Positions 6,953 through 38,100 of a DNA stretch of 64,000 nucleotides are shown in pieces (the stretch's first letter is position 1; every line of letters starts with the position of its first letter). Made by a program: the position numbers and the translations under genes. This stretch comes from an uncultured Eubacteriales bacterium (GTDB lineage Bacteria; Bacillota; Clostridia; Christensenellales; Aristaeellaceae), in NCBI GenBank assembly GCA_902801165.1, contig CADCHI010000007.1:17302-81301 (forward strand), read 5' to 3'. The notes under the pieces were generated by a model. The model worked only from the letters and a program-made list of their open reading frames with translations. It made no database searches and was not told the origin of the DNA.

Positions 6953-8047
6953 TTACTTCCCGAAATAGGCGCGGATCTCCTCCATCCGGGCGCTCTGCGC
7001 CACGTGGAAGGGACACCGACCGTCGCAGTGGCCGCAAGCGACGCAGTCTCCCGCGGTGCGTTCGAGTGCCCTGTAGTGCTCCGCCGCCATGCCGTCCCCG
7101 GTCCGCGCCAGGTCATAGTACTTGTTGATCAGGCCGATGTCCAACCCCATCGGGCAGGGCTGACAGTGATTGCAGTACACGCACCGTCCCCGGGCGTCCG
7201 CCGGGGCGAAGGTGCCCAGCACGCCGTAGTCCAGCGCCTCCTCGGGCTGGTCGCAGTAAGCCAGCAGCTGCTCCACCTCGCCGATGTCCTTGAAGCCGGG
7301 CAGCACCGTCAGCACGCCGGGCTTGTCCAGCGCGTAGCGGAGGCATTGCCAGGGCGTCAGCGCCCGCCCGAAGGGCGAGGTGGCCGCGTCCAGCATCTGC
7401 CCGCCGGAGAAGGGCTTCATCACCGATATGCCCACCCCCAGGCGCTCGCACTTGCGGTAGAGCTCCGCGCGCTCGTCCACGCCGCCGTGGGCGTACTCGC
7501 CCTGGCCGTAGTCATAGCCGGGGTTGATGGAGAACATCAGCATGTCCGGCTCGGCCTCGTCGATGATCCGGCTGGCCACCGCCGGGGTGTGGGAGGACAC
7601 GCCGATGTGCCGCACCACGCCGGCCTTCTTCATGGACAGCAGGTAGTCGTACACGCCGTTGGCCTTGTAGGTCTCCCAGTCGGAGTCCTCGTCCTGGCAG
7701 TGGATGAAGCCGTAGTCGATGTAGTCCGTCCGCAGGGCCTTCAGCTGCCGCTCCAGCGAGCGCTTGACCGGGTCCAGCTCCAGCGACCAGCCGTACTCGC
7801 CCTTGCTGTAGTCCGCGCCAAAGTGGATCTGGTAGAAGATGCTGCCGCGCACGTCGCTCAGCGCCTCGCCGTAGATGGGAAAGCTGTCGCCGTGGCCCGC
7901 GGCCAGGTCGAAGTAGTTGACGCCGCCCTCGTAGGCCCGGCGCAGCGCCCGGACGCCCTCGTCCATTCCCGCCTCGTGGGTATAGGACGAGCCGAGGCCG
8001 ATTTCGCTGATCCTGTCCCCCGTGCGCCTGTTCACCCTGTACTTCAT
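6953..8047 (-). CDS. Aldo/keto reductase fused to a C-terminal 4Fe-4S ferredoxin-type domain
   Basis: GVNYFDLAAGHG and HIGVSSH (AKR motifs). CVYCNHCQPCP and CVACGHCDGRCP (Cys clusters). RBS GGGAGGA. Confidence 0.85.
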   Translation of the reverse strand: MKYRVNRRTGDRISEIGLGSSYTHEAGMDEGVRALRRAYEGGVNYFDLAAGHGDSFPIYGEALSDVRGSIFYQIHFGADYSKGEYGWSLELDPVKRSLERQLKALRTDYIDYGFIHCQDEDSDWETYKANGVYDYLLSMKKAGVVRHIGVSSHTPAVASRIIDEAEPDMLMFSINPGYDYGQGEYAHGGVDERAELYRKCERLGVGISVMKPFSGGQMLDAATSPFGRALTPWQCLRYALDKPGVLTVLPGFKDIGEVEQLLAYCDQPEEALDYGVLGTFAPADARGRCVYCNHCQPCPMGLDIGLINKYYDLARTGDGMAAEHYRALERTAGDCVACGHCDGRCPFHVAQSARMEEIRAYFGK

Positions 8048-8297
8048 CTGGATGTCCTCCCGTCTCTTTCGCGTTGGGTCTGAATCCCCCGGCCGCCGCG
8101 CCGGGGCAGTCTGCCGTTCCTTCCACAGCCATTATAGCTCAAATGAGCCTGCGTTGCAAGGCTCGTCCCTCCACTCGATGGGGACCGCTTCGCGCCGCCG
8201 CAAAAACCATTGGACAGGCTGCGGAAAATATGATAGTATAAGGGGACGGGATATCGCTCCCGTTCTGTTGAGAATATGCAATTCGGGGGATGAAAGC

Positions 8298-9257
8298 ATG
8301 ACGGCAGCAAACGAGCGCTTCGAGGCCCGCGTGCAGGCGCTGGCAGACCGCATATTGGACGATTACGGCAACGAGAGGGTCATCGACCGGCTGGAGATGT
8401 TCACCCAGCCCGACCGGCAGATCATTGAGGGGCTGATCGGCAAGCTGCTGCGCCTGGTGTTTCCCGGCTACTTCCGGGACTACACCTACCGCATCTACAA
8501 CCCGAAGAACAACCTGTCCGCGCTGATCGAGGACATCGCCTTTCACCTGAACCGCCAAATCGGCATCGCGCTGAAGGACGGCGACCCGCGGGAGGACGAG
8601 TCGATCCAGCGCCGGGCCGAGGACATCACCGCCGCGTTCCTGGAGAAGCTGCCGGAGATCCGCGCCCTGGTGGAGACGGATCTCCAGGCCGCCTACGACG
8701 GCGACCCCGCCGCCTCCAGCAAGGCGGAGGTCATCATCGCCTATCCCGGCATCTACGCCATCACGGTGAACCGGCTGGCCCACGCGCTGTACCAGCTGGA
8801 GGTGCCGCTGATCCCCCGCATCATGACCGAGTTCGCCCACAGCAAGACGGGCATCGACATCCACCCCGGTGCGCAGATCGGCAAGTACTTCTTCATCGAC
8901 CACGGCACCGGCATCGTCGTGGGCGAGACCACCGTCATCGGCGACAACGTGAAGATCTACCAGGGCGTCACCCTGGGCGCGCTGTCCACCCGGGGCGGCC
9001 AAAAGCTCCACGGCAAGCGCCGCCACCCCACCATCGAGGACAACGTGACCATCTACGCCGGCGCGTCCATCCTCGGCGGCGAGACCGTCATCGGCCACGA
9101 CTCCGTGATCGGCTCCAACGTGTTCATCACCCACCCCATCGCCCCCGGCACCCGGGTGAGCATCAAGAACCAGGAGCTGCAATACAAGAACGGCCAGGGC
9201 TACGTGCTCCAGTCCGACATCCCCGAGGGCGACCCCGCCTGGTTTTACGTGATCTGA
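8298..9257 (+). CDS. cysE: Serine O-acetyltransferase
   Basis: GIDIHPGAQIGKYFFIDHGTGIVVGETTVIGDNVKIYQGVTLGA hexapeptide-repeat core. Start at MTAANERF. The track ORF from 8022 overlaps the divergent AKR gene. Confidence 0.85.
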   Translation: MTAANERFEARVQALADRILDDYGNERVIDRLEMFTQPDRQIIEGLIGKLLRLVFPGYFRDYTYRIYNPKNNLSALIEDIAFHLNRQIGIALKDGDPREDESIQRRAEDITAAFLEKLPEIRALVETDLQAAYDGDPAASSKAEVIIAYPGIYAITVNRLAHALYQLEVPLIPRIMTEFAHSKTGIDIHPGAQIGKYFFIDHGTGIVVGETTVIGDNVKIYQGVTLGALSTRGGQKLHGKRRHPTIEDNVTIYAGASILGGETVIGHDSVIGSNVFITHPIAPGTRVSIKNQELQYKNGQGYVLQSDIPEGDPAWFYVI

Positions 9258-9893: not shown

Positions 9894-11564
9894 TCAATGC
9901 CTGCCGCGTCCCGCGCCGCCGCCAGAGGAATGGCCTCCCCCGCCGCTGCCGCCACCGAAGCCGGAAGAATGCGAGGAAGAACCGGAGGAGCGGGAGGATG
10001 AGCCGGAGGAGCCCCAGCGGTCGTCGTCCCGCTCGTGTTTCTCTTTAAAAGCGCCAAGTTTGAATACCAGGAACAGCAGCAAGCCCACCACCGGTACCAG
10101 GAGAATGATCAGCAGGATCTGCCCGACCTTCTCGCTGTTCTTCCTGCCCCTCCTCCTGGAATCCTCCTCTTTGATCTTGGCATATCTTTCTTCGGCGGCA
10201 CTGCGTCCCGTGACGAAGCTGTCGGCAACACCGCCGCCGCCCTCCGCCTTGAGCTTTGACCAATCGCCGTCCGACTCGGCCCAGTGTCCGTATTGCCACT
10301 TAGCGCTGGATATGCTGGGTTCCGGGCCCAGCACACTTTCAATATATGCGTTATAATATAAGGATTCGGGAACATCTGAACGGAATATATTCTGGACCGC
10401 CGCGGAATAGCTCGAGGCATAGGTATGCGCAGTAAAGAAGCTTTCATACGCGCCTTTATCATAGTCGCGTTTTTTGAAATGCGGCACCATTTGGGCAAGG
10501 GACTGGGCCATCGTAAAATCATTGCATTCGCTCGCCGCGCCCCGCACCATGCAGTAATCACCGTCGTCGATCGCCATCAGGATCAGCATGCCTTCGTTTC
10601 GCGCGTCGCCAATGCCCCATTTGTTGAACAGCGCGTAGGCGTAATCCTCAATGGGTATGCCGCCGGTGGTCTTTACCGTCGCCACGACCAGCTGAACGCC
10701 GCAGTACTCATACAGCGCCCGGCTTGCGAAGAATATGGTTCCCCGCGTTTCTTCGGAAAGGACGTCCGCCAGGTCCGTGAAGTAAAACCACTGGCTGGGT
10801 TCAGGCAGGTCCATTTCCACGTCGAGCGGTTCGCGGGTGGGCGAAGGCGTCCGGGTCGGCATGGGCGTGCCCGTGGCCCTGGGCGAAGGCGTCGGGGTCG
10901 GCACGGGCGTGCCCGTGGCTTCGGGCGAAGCGCTGACGGATACCGGGGCCTCTTCGGCATTCACGGCGATTCCCCCGCCGCCGGCGCTGGCGGTCATGGC
11001 GTCGGGATTCGCCTGCCCCTTCCAGGCGAGGTAGTCCTCGATGCCCTGCTCCACGGTCACATCGGCGTTGTAGGTGTCCGCGATGCGCTTGAAGACGACC
11101 TCGTAGAACTTCTTCACGCCGTCCTCGTAGCGTTTCGCCGCGAATTCCGCCTCCAGATATTCGTCCAGATACGCCTTGAGCTGGCCCGCGCCCAGCTTCG
11201 GCTGGAGGTTGTCGCCGCAAAGGGCATAGTAATTTTCGTCCCCAACGGCCAGCAGCAGCAGGAAGCCGTTGTTGGCCTCCCTGTCGCCGATGCCCCATTG
11301 GTTGAACAGCTCCACGGCATATTCCGAAATCTCCCGGCCGCCGGTGGAGTCGATGGTCACGACGACCATCTGCGCGCCGCAGGCGGCGCTCAACCGCTTG
11401 TTCGAGAAGTAGATTTCGCCTTCCAGTGCCTCGGAAAGCACGTTCGCCTCGTCCAGGAAGTAGAATTCCCGGCCCGGTTCCTGCACCGCTGCCAAGGCGG
11501 GCAACGCCGAAAGCATCATCAGCAAGAGCGCCAGCGCCGCGCACAGTATCCGCCTGATCGCCAT
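9894..11564 (-). CDS. Tandem TPM-domain protein with a C-terminal TM helix and Gly/Ser-rich tail
   Basis: Two TPM units (YFLDEANVLSE...WGIGDREANNGFLLLLA and YFTDLADVLSE...WGIGDARNEGMLILMA) joined by a Pro/Thr linker. Start at MAIRRIL, preceded by AAGGAGG. Confidence 0.8.
   Translation of the reverse strand: MAIRRILCAALALLLMMLSALPALAAVQEPGREFYFLDEANVLSEALEGEIYFSNKRLSAACGAQMVVVTIDSTGGREISEYAVELFNQWGIGDREANNGFLLLLAVGDENYYALCGDNLQPKLGAGQLKAYLDEYLEAEFAAKRYEDGVKKFYEVVFKRIADTYNADVTVEQGIEDYLAWKGQANPDAMTASAGGGGIAVNAEEAPVSVSASPEATGTPVPTPTPSPRATGTPMPTRTPSPTREPLDVEMDLPEPSQWFYFTDLADVLSEETRGTIFFASRALYEYCGVQLVVATVKTTGGIPIEDYAYALFNKWGIGDARNEGMLILMAIDDGDYCMVRGAASECNDFTMAQSLAQMVPHFKKRDYDKGAYESFFTAHTYASSYSAAVQNIFRSDVPESLYYNAYIESVLGPEPSISSAKWQYGHWAESDGDWSKLKAEGGGGVADSFVTGRSAAEERYAKIKEEDSRRRGRKNSEKVGQILLIILLVPVVGLLLFLVFKLGAFKEKHERDDDRWGSSGSSSRSSGSSSHSSGFGGGSGGGGHSSGGGAGRGRH
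10839..10932. repeat. 42-nt tandem repeat (2.2 copies) encoding the SP(E/R)ATGTP(V/M)PT(P/R)TP linker
   Basis: GGGCGAAGGCGTCSGGGTCGGCAYGGGCGTGCCCGTGGC repeated head to tail. Confidence 0.85.
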
Positions 11565-11595
11565 GTTGTCCTCCTTATAGCCCAAGTTTGTTTTA

Positions 11596-11624
11596 ATAAT
11601 AGATAAAGATAACTGGAAAGTCAA
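11596..11624 (-). promoter_or_regulatory. Sigma-A type promoter for the TPM gene
   Basis: On the minus strand: TTGACT, 17-nt spacer, TATTAT. Confidence 0.55.
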
Positions 11625-11679
11625 TATGGCAGGACCGCCGGTGGCGAAAAAAGTCCCTTGATTAATTTACCGCCATCCC

Positions 11680-11708
11680 TTGAAAGTCGTGCTCCCTATT
11701 GATATAAT
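11680..11708 (+). promoter_or_regulatory. Sigma-A type promoter for the Rrf2 regulator gene
   Basis: TTGAAA, 17-nt spacer, TATAAT. Confidence 0.65.
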
Positions 11709-11739
11709 GGGAATAGCGAATGAATGGGGAGGGTGAACG

Positions 11740-12144
11740 ATGATCTCAACAAAGGGACGCTATGCGCTTCGGGTAATGATCGACCTCGCCGAACAGCAGT
11801 CGGAGGGCTATGTGCCGCTGAACGAGATCGCGGCGCGCCAGGAGATCTCCGTCAAGTACCTGGAGCTGATCCTGAAATCGCTGGTACAGAACAAGCTGCT
11901 GGAGGGCCAGCGCGGCAAGGGCGGCGGCTACCGCCTCACCCGCGCGCCGGAGGACTATACCGCGGGGGAGATCCTGGAGCTGACCGAGGGCACGCTGTCC
12001 CCCGTCGCCTGCCTGGCTCCCGGTGCGAAGCCCTGCCCCCGCTGCGACGGCTGCCGGACGCTGCCCCTGTGGCAGAAGTTCGACGCGACGGTGCACGACT
12101 TCTTCTACGGGGTCACGCTGAGGGAACTGATGCGTAAAGATTGA
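11740..12144 (+). CDS. Rrf2 family transcriptional regulator (CymR/IscR-like)
   Basis: MISTKGRYALRVMIDLA, wHTH ISVKYLELILKSL, GGGYRL. C-terminal Cys cluster CLAPGAKPCPRCDGC. Confidence 0.85.
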   Translation: MISTKGRYALRVMIDLAEQQSEGYVPLNEIAARQEISVKYLELILKSLVQNKLLEGQRGKGGGYRLTRAPEDYTAGEILELTEGTLSPVACLAPGAKPCPRCDGCRTLPLWQKFDATVHDFFYGVTLRELMRKD

Positions 12145-12163
12145 GTTACGCGCTATTATCCTA

Positions 12164-12192
12164 TTGACACGATGGGTTTATTGCGGTATACT
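12164..12192 (+). promoter_or_regulatory. Consensus sigma-A promoter of the cysK leader
   Basis: TTGACA (12164-12169), 17-nt spacer, TATACT (12187-12192). Confidence 0.7.
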
Positions 12193-12220
12193 GTACAAAA
12201 ACAAACGGGAGATGAACGCC

Positions 12221-12313
12221 ATGCGCCGCGCGTCCTTCATGCACCTCAGCCGCGCCTGTTATATGGACAGGTGTTGTTGTCGTGGAAGAATGCCGCGTTT
12301 CTCCTGCCTGTAG
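12221..12313 (+). CDS. Candidate Cys-rich leader peptide [30 protein letters not shown] (regulatory uORF)
   Basis: GGGAG lies 9 nt upstream of the ATG at 12221. TGT TGT TGT occupies 12272-12280. There are 5 Cys in 30 codons. The stop at 12311-12313 is 38 nt before an intrinsic terminator. Confidence 0.4.
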
Positions 12314-12350
12314 GCGTGCCCTTGCCGGCGCGCCAGGTTCGCCCCACATT

Positions 12351-12383
12351 ACAGGAGATTCGCAAGGAATCTCCTGTTTTTTC
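12351..12383 (+). terminator. Intrinsic terminator (attenuator) in the cysK 5' leader
   Basis: ACAGGAGATTC / GAATCTCCTGT is an 11-bp stem with loop GCAAG, followed by TTTTTT. It lies 35 nt upstream of the cysK ATG. Confidence 0.8.
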
Positions 12384-12417
12384 AATTCGATTATGCAAGG
12401 ATGAAAGGAGTTTCACC

Positions 12418-13350
12418 ATGACCAGGATCTTCAAGAGCGCCGATCAGCTCATCGGCAACACCCCGCTCGTCGAGTTCACCCACATCGAAGCCGCCGAGGG
12501 CCTGAAGGCCACGCTGCTGACGAAGCTGGAATACCTCAATCCCGCGGGCAGCGTCAAGGACCGCATCGCCCGGGCCATGATCGACGACGCCGAGGCCCGC
12601 GGCGCGCTGAAGCCCGGCGCGACCATCATCGAGCCGACCTCCGGCAACACCGGCATCGGCCTGGCCGCCGTGGCCGCCGCCAGGGGCTACAGGATCATCA
12701 TCGTCATGCCGGAGACCATGTCCGTGGAGCGCCGCCAGCTGATGAAGGCCTACGGTGCGGAGCTGGTGCTCACCGAGGGCAGCAAGGGCATGAAGGGCGC
12801 CATCGCCAAGGCCGAAGAGCTGGCCGCCACCATCGAGAACAGCTTTATCCCCGCCCAGTTCGACAATCCCGCCAACCCGAAGGCACACTTCGACACCACC
12901 GGCCCGGAGATCTGGGCGGACACCGACGGCAAGGTGGACATCTTCGTCGCGGGCGTGGGCACCGGCGGCACCATCACCGGCGTAGGCAAGTTCCTGAAGT
13001 CCAAGAACCCCAACGTGAAGATCGTGGCCGTGGAGCCCGCCACCTCCGCCGTGCTGTCCACCGGCGTGGCCGGCGCGCACAAGATCCAGGGCATCGGCGC
13101 GGGCTTCGTGCCCAAGGTGCTGGACACCCAGGTCTATGACGAGATCATCGCCGTTCCTAACGAGGAAGCCTTCGCCACCGGCAAGGCCATCGGCCGCCAG
13201 GAGGGCGTGCTGGTGGGCATCTCCTCCGGCGCGGCGGCCTGGGCCGCCATCCAGCTGGCCAAGCGGCCGGAGAACGCGGGCAAGACCATCGTCGCCCTGC
13301 TGCCGGACACCGGCGACCGCTACCTCTCCACGCCGCTGTTCAGCGAATAA
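12418..13350 (+). CDS. cysK: Cysteine synthase A (O-acetylserine sulfhydrylase)
   Basis: [25 protein letters not shown] (PLP lysine motif), [32 protein letters not shown]. Confidence 0.9.
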
Positions 13351-13362
13351 ACCGATAAAACC

Positions 13363-13413
13363 AAAAAACGCCCGTGGCCGGGATCGCATTGCGGTCCCGG
13401 CCACGGTTTTTTT
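13363..13413. terminator. Bidirectional intrinsic terminator between cysK and hsp20
   Basis: CCGTGGCCGGGA / TCCCGGCCACGG is a 12-bp stem, flanked by an A-run upstream and a T-run downstream. Confidence 0.85.
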
Positions 13414-13416
13414 CAG

Positions 13417-13869
13417 TTACTGGATCTCGATCTTCCGCGCCTCGGGAAGGGCCTGCTTTTCCTGCTTGGGCAGGTTCAAGGTCAGCACGCCGTCCTTGAA
13501 GGCGGCGGTAATGTCCTCCTCTCGGATGCCCTCCACGTTGAAGGAGCGGCTCACGCTGCCGCAGCGGCGCTCGCGGTAGATGTAGCGCTCGTCCTCACCC
13601 TTGTCCTCCTTCTCCTGGTTGTAGTGGGCGGAGATGGTCAGCACGTCGTTATGCAGCTCCACCTGCACGTCGTCCTTGGACGCGCCGGGGATCTCTGCCT
13701 CCAGCGTATAGCGGTCGCCGTCGTCGCGGACATCCACCTTCATGGGGCGATCGGCCCGCGCCATGCCGTCAAAGAACGGCCGGAAGAAGCTGTCGCCGAA
13801 GTCGTCAAAAAAGCTCCTGGGGGCAACGCTGCGATTGCTGCGATAGGGAATCATTCCAAACATATTCAT
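13417..13869 (-). CDS. Hsp20/alpha-crystallin family small heat-shock protein
   Basis: VDVRDDGDRYTLEAEIPGASKDDVQVELHNDVLTISA and AAFKDGVLTLNLPK. RBS AAGGAGG. Confidence 0.9.
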   Translation of the reverse strand: MNMFGMIPYRSNRSVAPRSFFDDFGDSFFRPFFDGMARADRPMKVDVRDDGDRYTLEAEIPGASKDDVQVELHNDVLTISAHYNQEKEDKGEDERYIYRERRCGSVSRSFNVEGIREEDITAAFKDGVLTLNLPKQEKQALPEARKIEIQ

Positions 13870-13970
13870 ATCCTCCTTTTCTGTCCGCGGGGCCGTGCCC
13901 GGCGCGGACGGTCGGCATTGCTATTATCCTCAGCGGGGCGTCGCTCTATGCCCTCCCGCTGACATCTATC

Positions 13971-13998
13971 ATTATAGTCAAAGGTCAAAGATAGTCAA
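13971..13998 (-). promoter_or_regulatory. Sigma-A type promoter of hsp20
   Basis: On the minus strand: TTGACT, 16-nt spacer, TATAAT. Confidence 0.6.
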
Positions 13999-13999
13999 T
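13976..13999. promoter_or_regulatory. CtsR-like operator (three RGTCAAW heptads)
   Basis: AGTCAAA GGTCAAA GAT AGTCAAT compared with the consensus RGTCAAA-NAN-RGTCAAA. It spans the -35 to -10 region of the hsp20 promoter. Confidence 0.5.
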
Positions 14000-14046
14000 A
14001 TCTTATTCTGTGAGTTTACCGACGTTTAACAATTCACTATTTCACC

Positions 14047-35122: not shown

Positions 35123-38100
35123 TCACCGAAGCCTGTTCGGCTTTCGCTCCGGGAACACGACCTCGTGCGTTTTCCCGTCGTCGATCATCCCGATGAAATC
35201 CCCTTCGACCTCCTTGCCGTCCAGCGTCACGCGGGCGGCTTTTTTGTCGCAGACCAGGCGATAGCAACTGCTGCCGAAGGGCACAGTGACGCATGCCCGG
35301 GGCCAGTCGCCCAGCAGGGCGCTCAGCCGCACGCGGTCCTCCCGGCGCTCGTAGCCCAGCAGCCCCAGCAGGCACACATACATCCAGGCCGCGGACCCGG
35401 TGTACCACGTCCAGCCGCCCCGCCCGGGGACCTCGGGCCGGTCGTACACGTCGGCGGCCATCACATAGGGCTCGACCCGATAGCGCAGCACCTTCTCCGG
35501 CGTATCCGCATGATTGAAGGGCAGCAGCATGCGCAGCGCCCGGTGGGCCCGTTCGCCGTCGCCCATGCGGATCATCGCCAGCAGCAGCCACAGCGCGCCG
35601 TGGGTGTACTGTCCGCCGTTCTCCCGCACCCCTGGCGGATAGGCCGCGATGTACCCCGGGTCCAGCCCCGCGCCGTCGAAGGGCGGCGTCAGCAGCCGTA
35701 TGAGGCCGCTTTCCTCGTCCACCAGCAGCTCCCAGGCGGCGTCCATGGCGCGGCGGCAGCGCCAGGGGTCCAGACCGGCCAGCACCGCCCACGCCTGGCT
35801 GATGGCGTCGATCCGGCAGGCCGCGCAGGCGGCGCTGCCCAGCGGCGCGCCGTCGTCGGCATAGGCCCGCAGGTACCAATTGCCGTCCCAGCCGAAGTTC
35901 TCCACCTCGATGCGCAGCCTTTGGCTCACCTCCGACAGCCAAGCCCTCTCCCCGGCGTCCCCGGCGACCTCCCGGTAGGCGTCGGCGCAGGCGATCCAGA
36001 ACTCGGACAGCCACACGCTCTCGCCCCGGCCCAGGTTTCCCACCCGGTTCATGCCGTCGTTCCAGTCTCCCGTTCCCATCAGCAGCAGGCCGTGGCTTCC
36101 GAACCGCGCCGCCCGGCGCAGCGCCTGCATGCAGTGTCCGTGCAGGGTGTCCACGGCGGCTCCGGGCCGCATCGGGCCATAGACGTCCTCGCGCCCCTCG
36201 GGGATCTCCACCGGCTCCAGGTAGGGAATCGCCTCCTCCAGCACCGCCGCGTCCCCGGTCCGGCGCACATAGGCCGCCGTCACCCAAGGCAAAAACAGCA
36301 AATCGTCCGACACCCTCGTGCGCACGCCCGTGAAGGGCTCGTGCCACCAGTGGAGCACGTCCCCCTCCTCAAACTGCCGGGCCGCGCAGCGCAGCAGGTG
36401 CGCCCGCACCCGCTCCGGCTCGTCCTCGAGCAGCGCCAGCATGTCCTGGAGCTGGTCCCGGAAGCCGTAGGCGCCGCCGGGCTGGTACAGCCCCGCGCGG
36501 CCCTGGACCCGGGAGGCGCGGACCTGGTGCAGGAGGAAATCGTTGGTCAGGTGGTTCAGCGCGGCGTCCGGCGTCTCGATGGTCAGGCACTCCTTGCGGG
36601 TATTCCGTCGGATCGCTTCAGCTTCTTCCCCATCAGTACCTCCTGCTTCGCGGCCATCCTCCCGCAAATTCGCCGCCCGCGCGAGGGCCGCTTCCGCGTC
36701 CCCGGCCCAGCCCAGCGCCAGGTGAAGCGCCTTTTCCTCCCCCTGTCCGAGCCGCACCGGCAGAGCCAGCGACCAGCCCTCGCCCCTGGAGGCGGCCGTC
36801 AACCCCATGGGCCGTGGGAAATCGCCGCCGCCCAGCAGCGCCAGCCGACCGGGTCCCGCCTGGGCGCCGGGCTCCGCGAAGGCGAAATAGCCCGCCCCGG
36901 GCATCGCGCCGGTGGCCAGGCAGGCGCCGGCCTCGTGCCAGGCGTTCAGTCGGACGGCGTCCCGGGCGTCCGTGCCCATCAGCCAGTTCACGCAGGCCAG
37001 CAGCCTGAACCGCCCGGAGCGCAGATTGCGGTTTTCAAGCCGCACCTCGATTCGCGTCTCCGGCAGCGCCTCCGCCTGGGCAAAGCGAACCTTCCCGGCG
37101 AGCCGCCGGGTCTCGAAGGCATAACTCGCCGACCGCGCGTCGTATCGGACCTCGAAGGGCATGACCGGTGCGACCCCCGGCAGCAGCGAAAGCGCCTCGC
37201 CGCGGGCCTCGTCCAACAGCCACAGCCCGATCCCCCAGCCCTCCCGCAGGGCGTCGTTGCCGTAGGGCGTCAATCGCCCGCTCCGGCTGTTGCCGCTCCA
37301 GAAGAAGCCGCCGCCCCGCTCGGAGAGCAGCGCCCCGCCGGCGTCATTTGCCAGGATATTGCACCACGGCGCGGGCGGGAGCCGATCCGGGGCCACGTCC
37401 ACGGCATAGCCGCCCGCAGGCAGGAAGCCGCCGAAGCCGTTCCAGCCCAGCCGCTCGCCCCGTCTGAGGGTGGACGCGCCGGTGTCCATGGTTCGAAGGG
37501 ACGCACCCCGAGGCGCGTCCAGCGCCGAGAGCCTGCGGCGCAGCTGGGCATAGAAGTCCCCGCCGGCGTCGAAGGCCGCGCAGGCGCTTCGCTCCAATGC
37601 CCGCCGCTGGTCCTCGGTCAGAGCGCCGCCGTCCAGCAGCCAGACGCCTCCGGGCACCCGGCGCAGCCGGTTCAGGTGGGAGGCGGCAATCATCGCCTCC
37701 ATGGCGTCCCGCAGCGGGCGGGCATAGCCGCCCTCACCGTCGTCCAGCAGCGCCAGGTCCACCTCCAGCCCGAGGGCATGGAAGAAGGCATGGACGCGAA
37801 CGGCCTCCCGGGCGGCGTCCAGGTCCTCCCCGGACGCGCGCACCAGCAGCAGGGGGCGGTCGCCGGAGAGGCCCAGGGGCCAGAGCAGCTCCGGCGGCAC
37901 CTCCGCCTCCCCCGGCCTCGGTCCCCGGGCCTGGGCGGCCAGCCTGCCGTCCACCAACAGCGCCGCCATCCGCTGCAGCAGCGCGTGGCCCTCGTCCTTC
38001 AGGCCAAGGAAGCCCAGCATCGCCCGGGCCTGCATCGACGCCAGTTGGAAGGCCCGCTCCGCCCGATCGGCGCTCCGGCTCTGCTCCAGCCAAGTCCCGG

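Follow-up and report, generated by a model that had tools for sequence, protein, structure and literature searches.

A predicted cysteine-codon leader-peptide attenuator upstream of cysK in uncultured Clostridia

The leader region of cysK

The stretch of DNA analysed here (the window) comprises 64,000 nucleotides (nt) of contig CADCHI010000007.1 from an uncultured Eubacteriales bacterium of the family Aristaeellaceae. It carries cysK, encoding an O-acetylserine sulfhydrylase, and upstream of it a gene for an Rrf2-family regulator. Between the cysK promoter and the cysK start codon lies a leader with a small, cysteine-rich upstream open reading frame (uORF) and an intrinsic terminator. The features are collected in Table 1. 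We suggest that the leader is a ribosome-mediated, trp/his-type leader-peptide transcription attenuator that reads the supply of charged tRNA-Cys, and put the probability of this at roughly 0.77. Attenuation of this type had been proposed in an earlier note made from the sequence of the window, and the comparison with related loci supports it.

Table 1. Features of the cysK leader and the adjoining genes (SD, Shine-Dalgarno sequence; aa, amino acids)
Feature	Position	Strand	Basis or remark
Rrf2-family regulator gene (CymR/IscR-like, 134 aa)	11740-12144	+	Pfam Rrf2 1.5e-33; promoter 11680-11708
Candidate Rrf2 operator CCTATTGACACGATGGG	12160-12176		overlaps -35 box of cysK promoter
Sigma-70-type promoter TTGACA-17-TATACT	12164-12192	+	promoter scan, 11 of 12 consensus positions
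Leader-ORF SD GGGAG	12207-12211	+	9 nt 5' of ATG 12221
Leader uORF, 30 codons + TAG	12221-12313 (TAG 12311-12313)	+	sequence reading; homologs in L130, L132, L138, L140, L141
Predicted sensor codons Arg17 (AGG) + Cys18-20 (TGT TGT TGT)	12269-12280	+	R-C-C invariant in five homologous peptides
Predicted antiterminator strand (segment 2) UCUCCUG	12300-12306	+	complementary to terminator 5' arm
Intrinsic terminator, 11-bp stem ACAGGAGATTC / GAATCTCCTGT, loop GCAAG	12351-12377 + T6 12377-12382	+	hairpin -17.2 kcal/mol
cysK SD AAGGAG	12405-12410	+	7 nt 5' of ATG 12418
cysK, O-acetylserine sulfhydrylase, 310 aa	12418-13350	+	NCBIfam TIGR01139 454 bits (cut-off 351); Pfam PALP
cysK's own terminator	13372-13406	+	terminator scan

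The transcript probably starts near 12199, and the leader ORF begins about 22 nt past this predicted start. Five of its 30 codons encode Cys, namely TGT at 12257, 12272, 12275 and 12278 and TGC at 12305. The earlier note had described the promoter, the uORF with GGGAG at 9-nt spacing, and the five Cys codons with three of them consecutive at 12272-12280; we found all of these in the sequence.

Segment 2 lies 19 nt beyond the Cys run and 4 nt ahead of the stop codon. Its sequence, TCTCCTG, is the exact complement of CAGGAGA (12352-12358) in the 5' arm of the terminator, a complementarity that had been pointed out before and that beats shuffled sequences at p = 0.01-0.03. The terminator itself had been given with an 11-bp stem and a run of six T, both of which are correct, and with an end at 12383, which is not: the T run stops at 12382 and the following base is a C. 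The gap between the terminator and the ATG of cysK is 35 nt. Our placement of this ATG at 12418 refines the earlier description.

The promoter scan gave no promoter-like site from the leader terminator to cysK, and cysK must therefore be transcribed through the leader terminator. The whole leader folds better than its shuffles (z = -4.2), and the minimum-free-energy fold closes 12206-12311 through pairing of GGGAGA, which contains the SD of the uORF, with UCUCCUG. ORFs on the minus strand that span the leader had no family match.

It should be noted that the cysK frame has no stop for 82 codons ahead of its true start and runs from an ATG at 12172 through the leader and the terminator. The ORF listing accordingly gives a cysK ORF of 392 aa, and gene callers could extend CysK N-terminally and so hide the leader.

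Within the window, two of the 96 small ORFs with an SD and an ATG have at least five Cys codons. The one other than the leader ORF (36079-36180, minus strand, six Cys codons) lies out of frame inside a large coding sequence and was dismissed. The string TGYTGYTGY occurs 14 times; the 13 copies elsewhere are of the TGC-containing CTG/GCT-repeat type, and the leader copy alone is all TGT. On its own this evidence is only suggestive. The element is judged to be more than chance because the same layout recurs before cysK in other lineages.

Recurrence of the leader before cysK

The comparison set consisted of 80 cysK loci from GTDB genomes and 46 Rrf2 loci from metagenomes. A further 16 loci (L127-L142) were added by exact-protein look-ups of CysK relatives. 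The metagenome relatives found with the Rrf2 protein were at most 66% identical to it; no close homolog of the leader came with them, and their cysK was mostly divergent from the Rrf2 gene or located elsewhere. The top CysK matches (P0001-P0003) were considered as possible extensions spanning the leader and rejected; they are longer proteins with unrelated upstream regions.

The regions upstream of cysK are of several types. In the first, there is no leader, and cysK follows an O-acetylhomoserine-sulfhydrylase-like gene or a bare promoter. The second, which we call the long form, resembles the leader of the window (hereafter WIN). The third, the short form, has a short uORF and no terminator. 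Among the 65 non-redundant intergenic regions upstream of cysK, 35 contain a uORF with an RC or CC motif, compared with 13 for the reverse complement and 7.9 +/- 2.6 for shuffles.

We found the long form in about nine lineages of uncultured Clostridia/Oscillospirales from gut and rumen (WIN/L130, L132-134, L138, L140, L141/142, L004/L007, L006, L021 and L045/L053). In each of them a uORF of 26-43 codons with 4-8 Cys codons is followed by an intrinsic terminator 1-37 nt past the stop codon. Every long-form leader whose contig includes the start of the uORF has an SD and an ATG; in L141/142 the 5' end is missing. The distance from the terminator to the cysK ATG is 32-63 nt, or 103-152 nt in L140, L045 and L053, where a second short uORF or extra sequence intervenes. 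The related leaders keep an SD- and ATG-bearing uORF, its Cys codons, a terminator and a segment complementary to the 5' arm of the latter; a comparison of orthologous leaders had been proposed in the earlier note. The upstream neighbour varies and is the Rrf2 gene in the window, a divergent sigma factor gene in L132, an SMC-like gene in L138 and a cyclase gene in L140, which argues that the terminator is not part of an upstream gene.

Both uORF forms occur in tandem in L045 and L053, two metagenome-assembled genomes (MAGs) of Oscillospiraceae, 60-280 nt 5' of cysK. From 5' to 3', these loci have a long uORF rich in Cys (MRRAIVNRMMCCDMCCERRVCFAIPI or MQKIFYIGMICCDARCENRVNCVIPI), its strong terminator, a short uORF (...KERCC... 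or MFLLKERC*) and cysK.

Cys is the commonest residue across six independent long-form uORFs (16.4%), and related uORFs contain 13-23% Cys. TGY triplets in these six uORFs number 35, 22 and 9 in frames 0, 1 and 2, respectively (p = 7.6e-4). Met is also enriched (9.9% of the residues) but is not conserved in position within the homologous class. The leader peptides have no family match in Pfam or NCBIfam, and a profile search with them against 5.8 billion proteins found only two uORFs that had been called as genes.

Six leaders can be aligned with one another (WIN, L130, L140, L132, L138 and L141). The Cys run, the core of segment 2 and the terminator arm are invariant in this class. The block GGAG-N-(A/C)TGAAC-N0-3-ATG around the SD is conserved in L132, L138 and L140, which supports a start at 12221 over the in-frame ATG at 12212. 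The Arg of the invariant R-C-C is encoded by AGG in WIN and L140 and by CGC in the others; that it is kept through synonymous codons points to a constraint on the reading frame and not on the RNA sequence. L130, with a CysK 92% identical to that of the window, is the only near-identical ortholog. Its uORF differs from that of WIN by two nonsynonymous changes (A12T and M24I) and no synonymous ones, and all Cys codons are kept. L130 keeps the terminator despite a 1-nt deletion, and L140 has the same type of hairpin.

The pairing between the uORF and the 5' arm of the terminator was scored against shuffles, and in all five lineages the duplex begins 12-15 nt past the Cys run. For WIN it has -11.7 kcal/mol (p = 0.033 with mononucleotide and p = 0.01 with dinucleotide shuffles). 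The corresponding values are -12.8 kcal/mol for L140 (p = 0.04), -17.4 for L132 (p = 0.009), -16.1 for L138 (p = 0.013) and -15.3 for L141 (p = 0.017). Fisher's combined p over six independent long forms is 6.5e-5 with dinucleotide shuffles. The pairing is kept by different bases, namely UCUCCUG : CAGGAGA in WIN, GAAAUCUCC : GGAGAUUUC in L140 and GGGAAUC-U-CCC : GGG-GAUUCCC in the L132 group.

The short form comprises about 26 non-redundant loci in which a uORF of about 4-25 codons, for example MKRC*, MKYDLHLRCRRADR* or MTRTLVLLTGRC*, lies 40-110 nt 5' of cysK and is not followed by an intrinsic terminator. These include L009, L010, L013-L015, L017-L020, L023, L025, L031, L033, L037, L042, L050, L052, L055, L065, L069, L079, L085 and L128, among them the cultured Vescimonas sanitatis (L023) and a Dysosmobacter MAG (L018). 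A box CGATGT(C/T)G is strictly conserved in the short form and reads Arg(CGA)-Cys(TGT), often followed by Arg, Cys or a stop codon. Pairing of this box with the SD region of cysK, as in a translational model of the mycobacterial type, is weakly supported (Fisher p = 0.016, with 5 of 26 loci individually below 0.05).

An Arg codon (AGG, CGC or CGA) stands directly 5' of the Cys codon or run in nearly all long and short uORFs, which may point to an effect of the peptide or of the P-site tRNA on stalling. The conservation is at the level of the amino acid in the long form and of the codon (CGA) in the short form.

Proposed mechanism and alternative explanations

Computation gave the sequence elements, how they recur and are spaced, and the lack of a match to any known RNA family; we infer translation of the uORF, stalling on it, kinetic competition between two pairings and a role for the Rrf2 operator. 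In brief, transcription would start from the promoter at 12164-12192, which also bears the probable Rrf2 operator, and a ribosome would load at GGGAG and the ATG at 12221 and translate the 30-codon leader. With plentiful Cys-tRNA the ribosome would reach the TAG at 12311 and cover UCUCCUG, the hairpin and its U-run would form, and most transcripts would end before cysK. With scarce Cys-tRNA it would stall at Arg-Cys-Cys-Cys (12269-12280) with its footprint short of 12300. The free UCUCCUG could then pair with CAGGAGA once this is transcribed, which would delay the terminator and let the polymerase read into cysK.

Counted from the first base of the codon in the A site, a bacterial ribosome protects about 15 nt on the 5' side and 12 nt on the 3' side. 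The footprint of a ribosome stalled on 12272-12280 would thus end at about 12284-12292 and leave 12300-12306 free, and with the TAG at 12311 in the A site it would cover 12296-12323. We modelled this as a folding snapshot, in which the transcript has the 5' arm and loop of the terminator and not yet its 3' arm, and the ribosome footprint is masked. The mean probability that the 5' arm of WIN is paired upstream is 0.62-0.72 with the mask at the stall and 0.03 with the mask at the stop codon, which agrees with the ribosome-position logic of the earlier note. The shift is in the expected direction in 5 of 10 leaders; among the relatives, the values for stall and stop are 1.0 and 0.38 in L132 and 0.83 and 0.0 in L007, and L138 and L141 change in the same direction.

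Several observations weigh against attenuation of this type. In the snapshots of L140, L006, L021, L045 and L053 there is no difference, and the ribosome at the stop codon fails to mask the antiterminator segment; either the timing of ribosome transit must matter in these leaders or the model is incomplete. Equilibrium folding of full-length masked leaders switches inconsistently, since the terminator dominates in most of them and the antiterminator in L140 and L006, whatever the position of the ribosome. Non-switching equilibrium folds would be expected of a kinetic device, and the energetics give no independent proof. In WIN the 7-bp antiterminator (-11.7 kcal/mol) faces an 11-bp terminator (-17.2 kcal/mol) and does not reach the loop-proximal UUC of the 5' arm. 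An alternative partner of UCUCCUG is the SD of the uORF; if these two paired, termination would be favoured during a stall as well, except where a second ribosome sits on the SD behind the first. Transcription runs ahead of translation in Bacillus subtilis, and if similar uncoupling holds here the timing between ribosome and polymerase would be less favourable. With L130 as the single close ortholog, base-by-base covariation for the exact window leader is thin.

In WIN, L045 and L053 the four segments are two direct repeats of an SD-like GGAG and an anti-SD-like CUCC. The pairing of the SD with segment 2 could act as a 1:2 element that enforces termination when the leader is untranslated. The 5' arm of a ribosome-free truncated WIN transcript is still captured, with a probability of 0.61.

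Based on the conserved Arg, we speculate that cysK leaders of Oscillospirales may do more than count codons and may use a dedicated Arg-Cys stalling context. The nascent peptide, or the tRNA-Arg in the P site, would then make the ribosome more sensitive to Cys-tRNA or to a signal from thiols, with a transcriptional output in the long form and a translational one in the short form. We hold this to be rather improbable. If true, it would be a widespread, previously unrecognised cysteine-sensing system in gut Clostridia.

The same Arg could belong to an arrest motif. In this case the nascent peptide would act as TnaC, SecM or Erm leaders do and sense free cysteine, the thiol/redox state or a drug instead of tRNA-Cys charging, with no change to the RNA switch. 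Arg is kept before the Cys codon or run with different Arg codons, and many short forms read R-C-R, which resembles +X+, a ribosome stalling motif. However, apart from R-C-C there is very little conservation of sequence or length among the peptides, the presence of several Cys codons ahead of a gene for Cys biosynthesis is the signature of codon-starvation sensing, and a biosynthetic gene induced by its own product makes no regulatory sense. We regard an arrest peptide as unlikely.

The chances of an undescribed riboswitch or protein-binding RNA, responding to cysteine, O-acetylserine, sulfide or a regulator protein and with the ORF incidental, appear slim. The GGGAGA:UCUCCUG pairing that closes the minimum-free-energy fold resembles a P1 stem and would decide between terminator and antiterminator, the fold is better than its shuffles, and the generic terminator/antiterminator logic of OFF riboswitches matches. 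The features that are conserved are nevertheless coding ones, namely the SD spacing, the ATG, the open frame, the in-frame Cys codons and the Arg kept through synonymous codons. RNAalifold gave no consensus structure for eight long-form leaders, a weak negative given the poor alignment; almost no sequence is conserved among these eight besides the start codon, the TGT-TGT run and the terminator.

No known RNA family was found either, in line with the earlier note, in which neither a T-box nor an S-box had been recognised. Rfam gave no match at gathering thresholds in the whole 64-kb window and none in the leaders of 13 related cysK loci. A permissive scan of 11000-14000 returned only noise (E > 0.9), and the leader had no riboswitch or T-box match at E <= 10. 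The covariance-model scans of leader and window assigned neither to the T-box leaders (RF00230) nor to the S-adenosylmethionine (SAM)/S-box class, and the T-box sequence AGGGTGGTACCGCG is not in the leader with up to three mismatches allowed. The glycine-GGAnGA riboswitch model scores 80 bits (gathering threshold 110, E = 5e-15) at 3300-3447 of L006, downstream of cysK; this sub-threshold match is unrelated to the leader.

It is very unlikely that the unit is a gene in its own right that encodes a Cys-rich micro-protein, for instance a peptide with metal or redox activity or one that serves as a sink for cysteine, with cysK expressed separately or by unregulated, leaky read-through. The unit does resemble a complete small gene, and one homolog (P0121) is annotated as a gene of 35 aa. 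Against this, the terminator and the SD of cysK have no promoter between them, the unit always directly precedes cysK on the same strand, and the peptide has no family match and drifts freely in length and sequence, as in the purely nonsynonymous differences between WIN and L130. A micro-protein would also leave the complementarity between uORF and terminator arm without a role.

Coincidence, with the hairpin being the terminator or insulator of the Rrf2 gene and the ORF a chance product of GC-rich DNA, is hardly credible: such DNA does yield another Cys-rich small ORF and 14 TGYTGYTGY strings in the window, but the promoter is downstream of the stop codon of the Rrf2 gene and upstream of the terminator, the layout recurs next to divergent or unrelated upstream genes with enrichment statistics that argue against chance, and the related loci are not assembly duplicates, since their leaders differ widely.

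Known systems and neighbouring genes

The proposed attenuator is like trpL, hisL, pheL, thrL, leuL and ivbL of E. coli and Salmonella in having a promoter-proximal ORF rich in codons for the end product and a terminator before the structural gene. As in the classical attenuators, a segment at or near the 3' end of the ORF can pair with the 5' arm of the terminator. The spacing from codons to segment, 15-19 nt here, is close to that of trpL. It differs from them in its specificity for cysteine, its clostridial host, its lack of sequence homology and its control of a single gene instead of an operon. Unlike them it also shows no clear 1:2 pause hairpin, and its segment 2, which resembles an anti-SD, pairs with the uORF SD. 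Leader-peptide attenuation has been described mainly in Proteobacteria and Actinobacteria.

Cysteine-specific leader ORFs are known from other groups. A predicted attenuator, uORFC-8-2, with tandem Cys codons, a terminator stem and a U-run precedes cysS in Rhodobacterales (Brewer et al. 2021, PMC8632094). The window element is alike in being a predicted ribosome-mediated attenuator with Cys specificity, a terminator and a U-run. It shares no sequence with uORFC-8-2, which is alphaproteobacterial, stands before cysS and carries its two Cys codons, mostly UGC, within the first stem at positions 14-15.

For cys operons of Mycobacterium, Propionibacterium and Bifidobacterium, upstream Cys leader peptides that lack a terminator have been predicted (Seliverstov et al. 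2005, PMC1262725). In mycobacteria, leaderless polycysteine small ORFs (sORFs) are translational attenuators that respond in experiments to the cysteine supply via ribosome transit, and the authors stated that uORF-mediated attenuation for cysteine had not previously been described (Canestrari et al. 2020, bioRxiv 10.1101/834739). Both they and the window uORF have consecutive Cys codons upstream of cysteine-related genes. The mycobacterial sORFs, unlike the window element, are leaderless and have no SD and no intrinsic terminator, and their poly-Cys tract forms base pairs with the downstream SD. The window uORF falls outside this class, as it has a 5' untranslated region, an SD and a strong terminator, and UGUUGUUGU is not complementary to AAAGGAG and its surroundings.

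In Bacillota, cys genes are known to be under Cys T-box and S-box (SAM) leaders and CymR repression, for example in the ubiG operon of C. acetobutylicum (PMC2566862). The window element is similar to these in that it concerns a sulfur amino-acid gene, would choose between terminator and antiterminator in a 5' leader, would depend on tRNA-Cys charging as does the T-box, and is accompanied by an Rrf2 regulator and operator. It differs from the T-box in that charging would be read by a translating ribosome and not by direct binding of tRNA to RNA.

A literature search whose coverage left many subscription journals outside gave no account of Cys leader peptides preceding cysK, or of any in Clostridia. 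The novelty proposed in the earlier note stands to this extent; Cys-codon leader ORFs as such had already been described in Actinobacteria and Rhodobacterales. We would class the window element as a new family of a type of regulator that is already known.

Descriptions of amino-acid genes in Bacillota usually place them under the control of T-boxes, riboswitches and RNA-binding proteins, and leader-peptide attenuation of the trp/his type is seen as rare in this phylum. The present locus, taken with its relatives, indicates that cysK is served by a ribosome-read Cys-codon leader in Oscillospirales, gut and rumen Clostridia that are abundant and for the most part uncultured, and adds a terminator-type cysteine attenuator to the few known Cys uORF systems. 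Nothing in the principle is new, but the find is clean, and it is widespread in a little-studied clade for which the mechanism was regarded as rare. For annotation it is relevant that CysK could be over-extended by 82 residues and that small uORFs are almost never annotated. The compact parts, 30 codons and a 27-nt hairpin, could be used for studying the coupling of transcription and translation in Clostridia.

The protein encoded upstream of the leader passes only the rrf2 superfamily model of NCBIfam. It scores 86 bits against the CymR model (cut-off 195) and 107 against the IscR model (cut-off 208). A box nearly identical to the candidate operator, CCTATTGATATAATGGG, lies in the Rrf2 gene's own promoter at 11695-11711, and the 17-bp box common to both promoters is CCTATTGA-N5-ATGGG. 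In the 65 non-redundant regions upstream of cysK, CCTATTGAC occurs 20 times, usually as the palindrome ACCTATTGACAnnGTAGGT. Many short-form leaders have a second palindrome, AACCTAC-N-GTAGGTT, just past the -10 box.

These boxes and palindromes are probably operators of the CymR/IscR-like Rrf2 regulator, which would then be autoregulatory. We infer that the Rrf2 protein represses both promoters, and that repression and attenuation would be layered as at the trp operon of E. coli, where an attenuator is combined with a promoter controlled by the repressor TrpR.

Between a divergent Rrf2 gene and cysK, 130-300 nt 5' of the latter, L086, L104, L108 and L121 have two to three tandem units of about 40 bp. 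Each unit carries the palindrome AAACCTACTATAGGAAGC...GCTTCCTATAGT, and together they may form an operator array.

The other neighbours include an Hsp20 gene (13417-13869, minus strand) convergent with cysK and a gene for a TPM-domain protein of 576 aa (9894-11624, minus strand) divergent from the Rrf2 gene, neither with an obvious link to sulfur metabolism. A serine O-acetyltransferase gene of the cysE/EpsC type is found at 8299-9257, 3 kb upstream of cysK. Its short leader has no Cys uORF and no Rrf2-type box. We place its promoter, TGGACA-N17-TAGTAT, at approximately 8211-8239, and the 411-aa ORF that starts at 8022 is an upstream over-extension of this gene.

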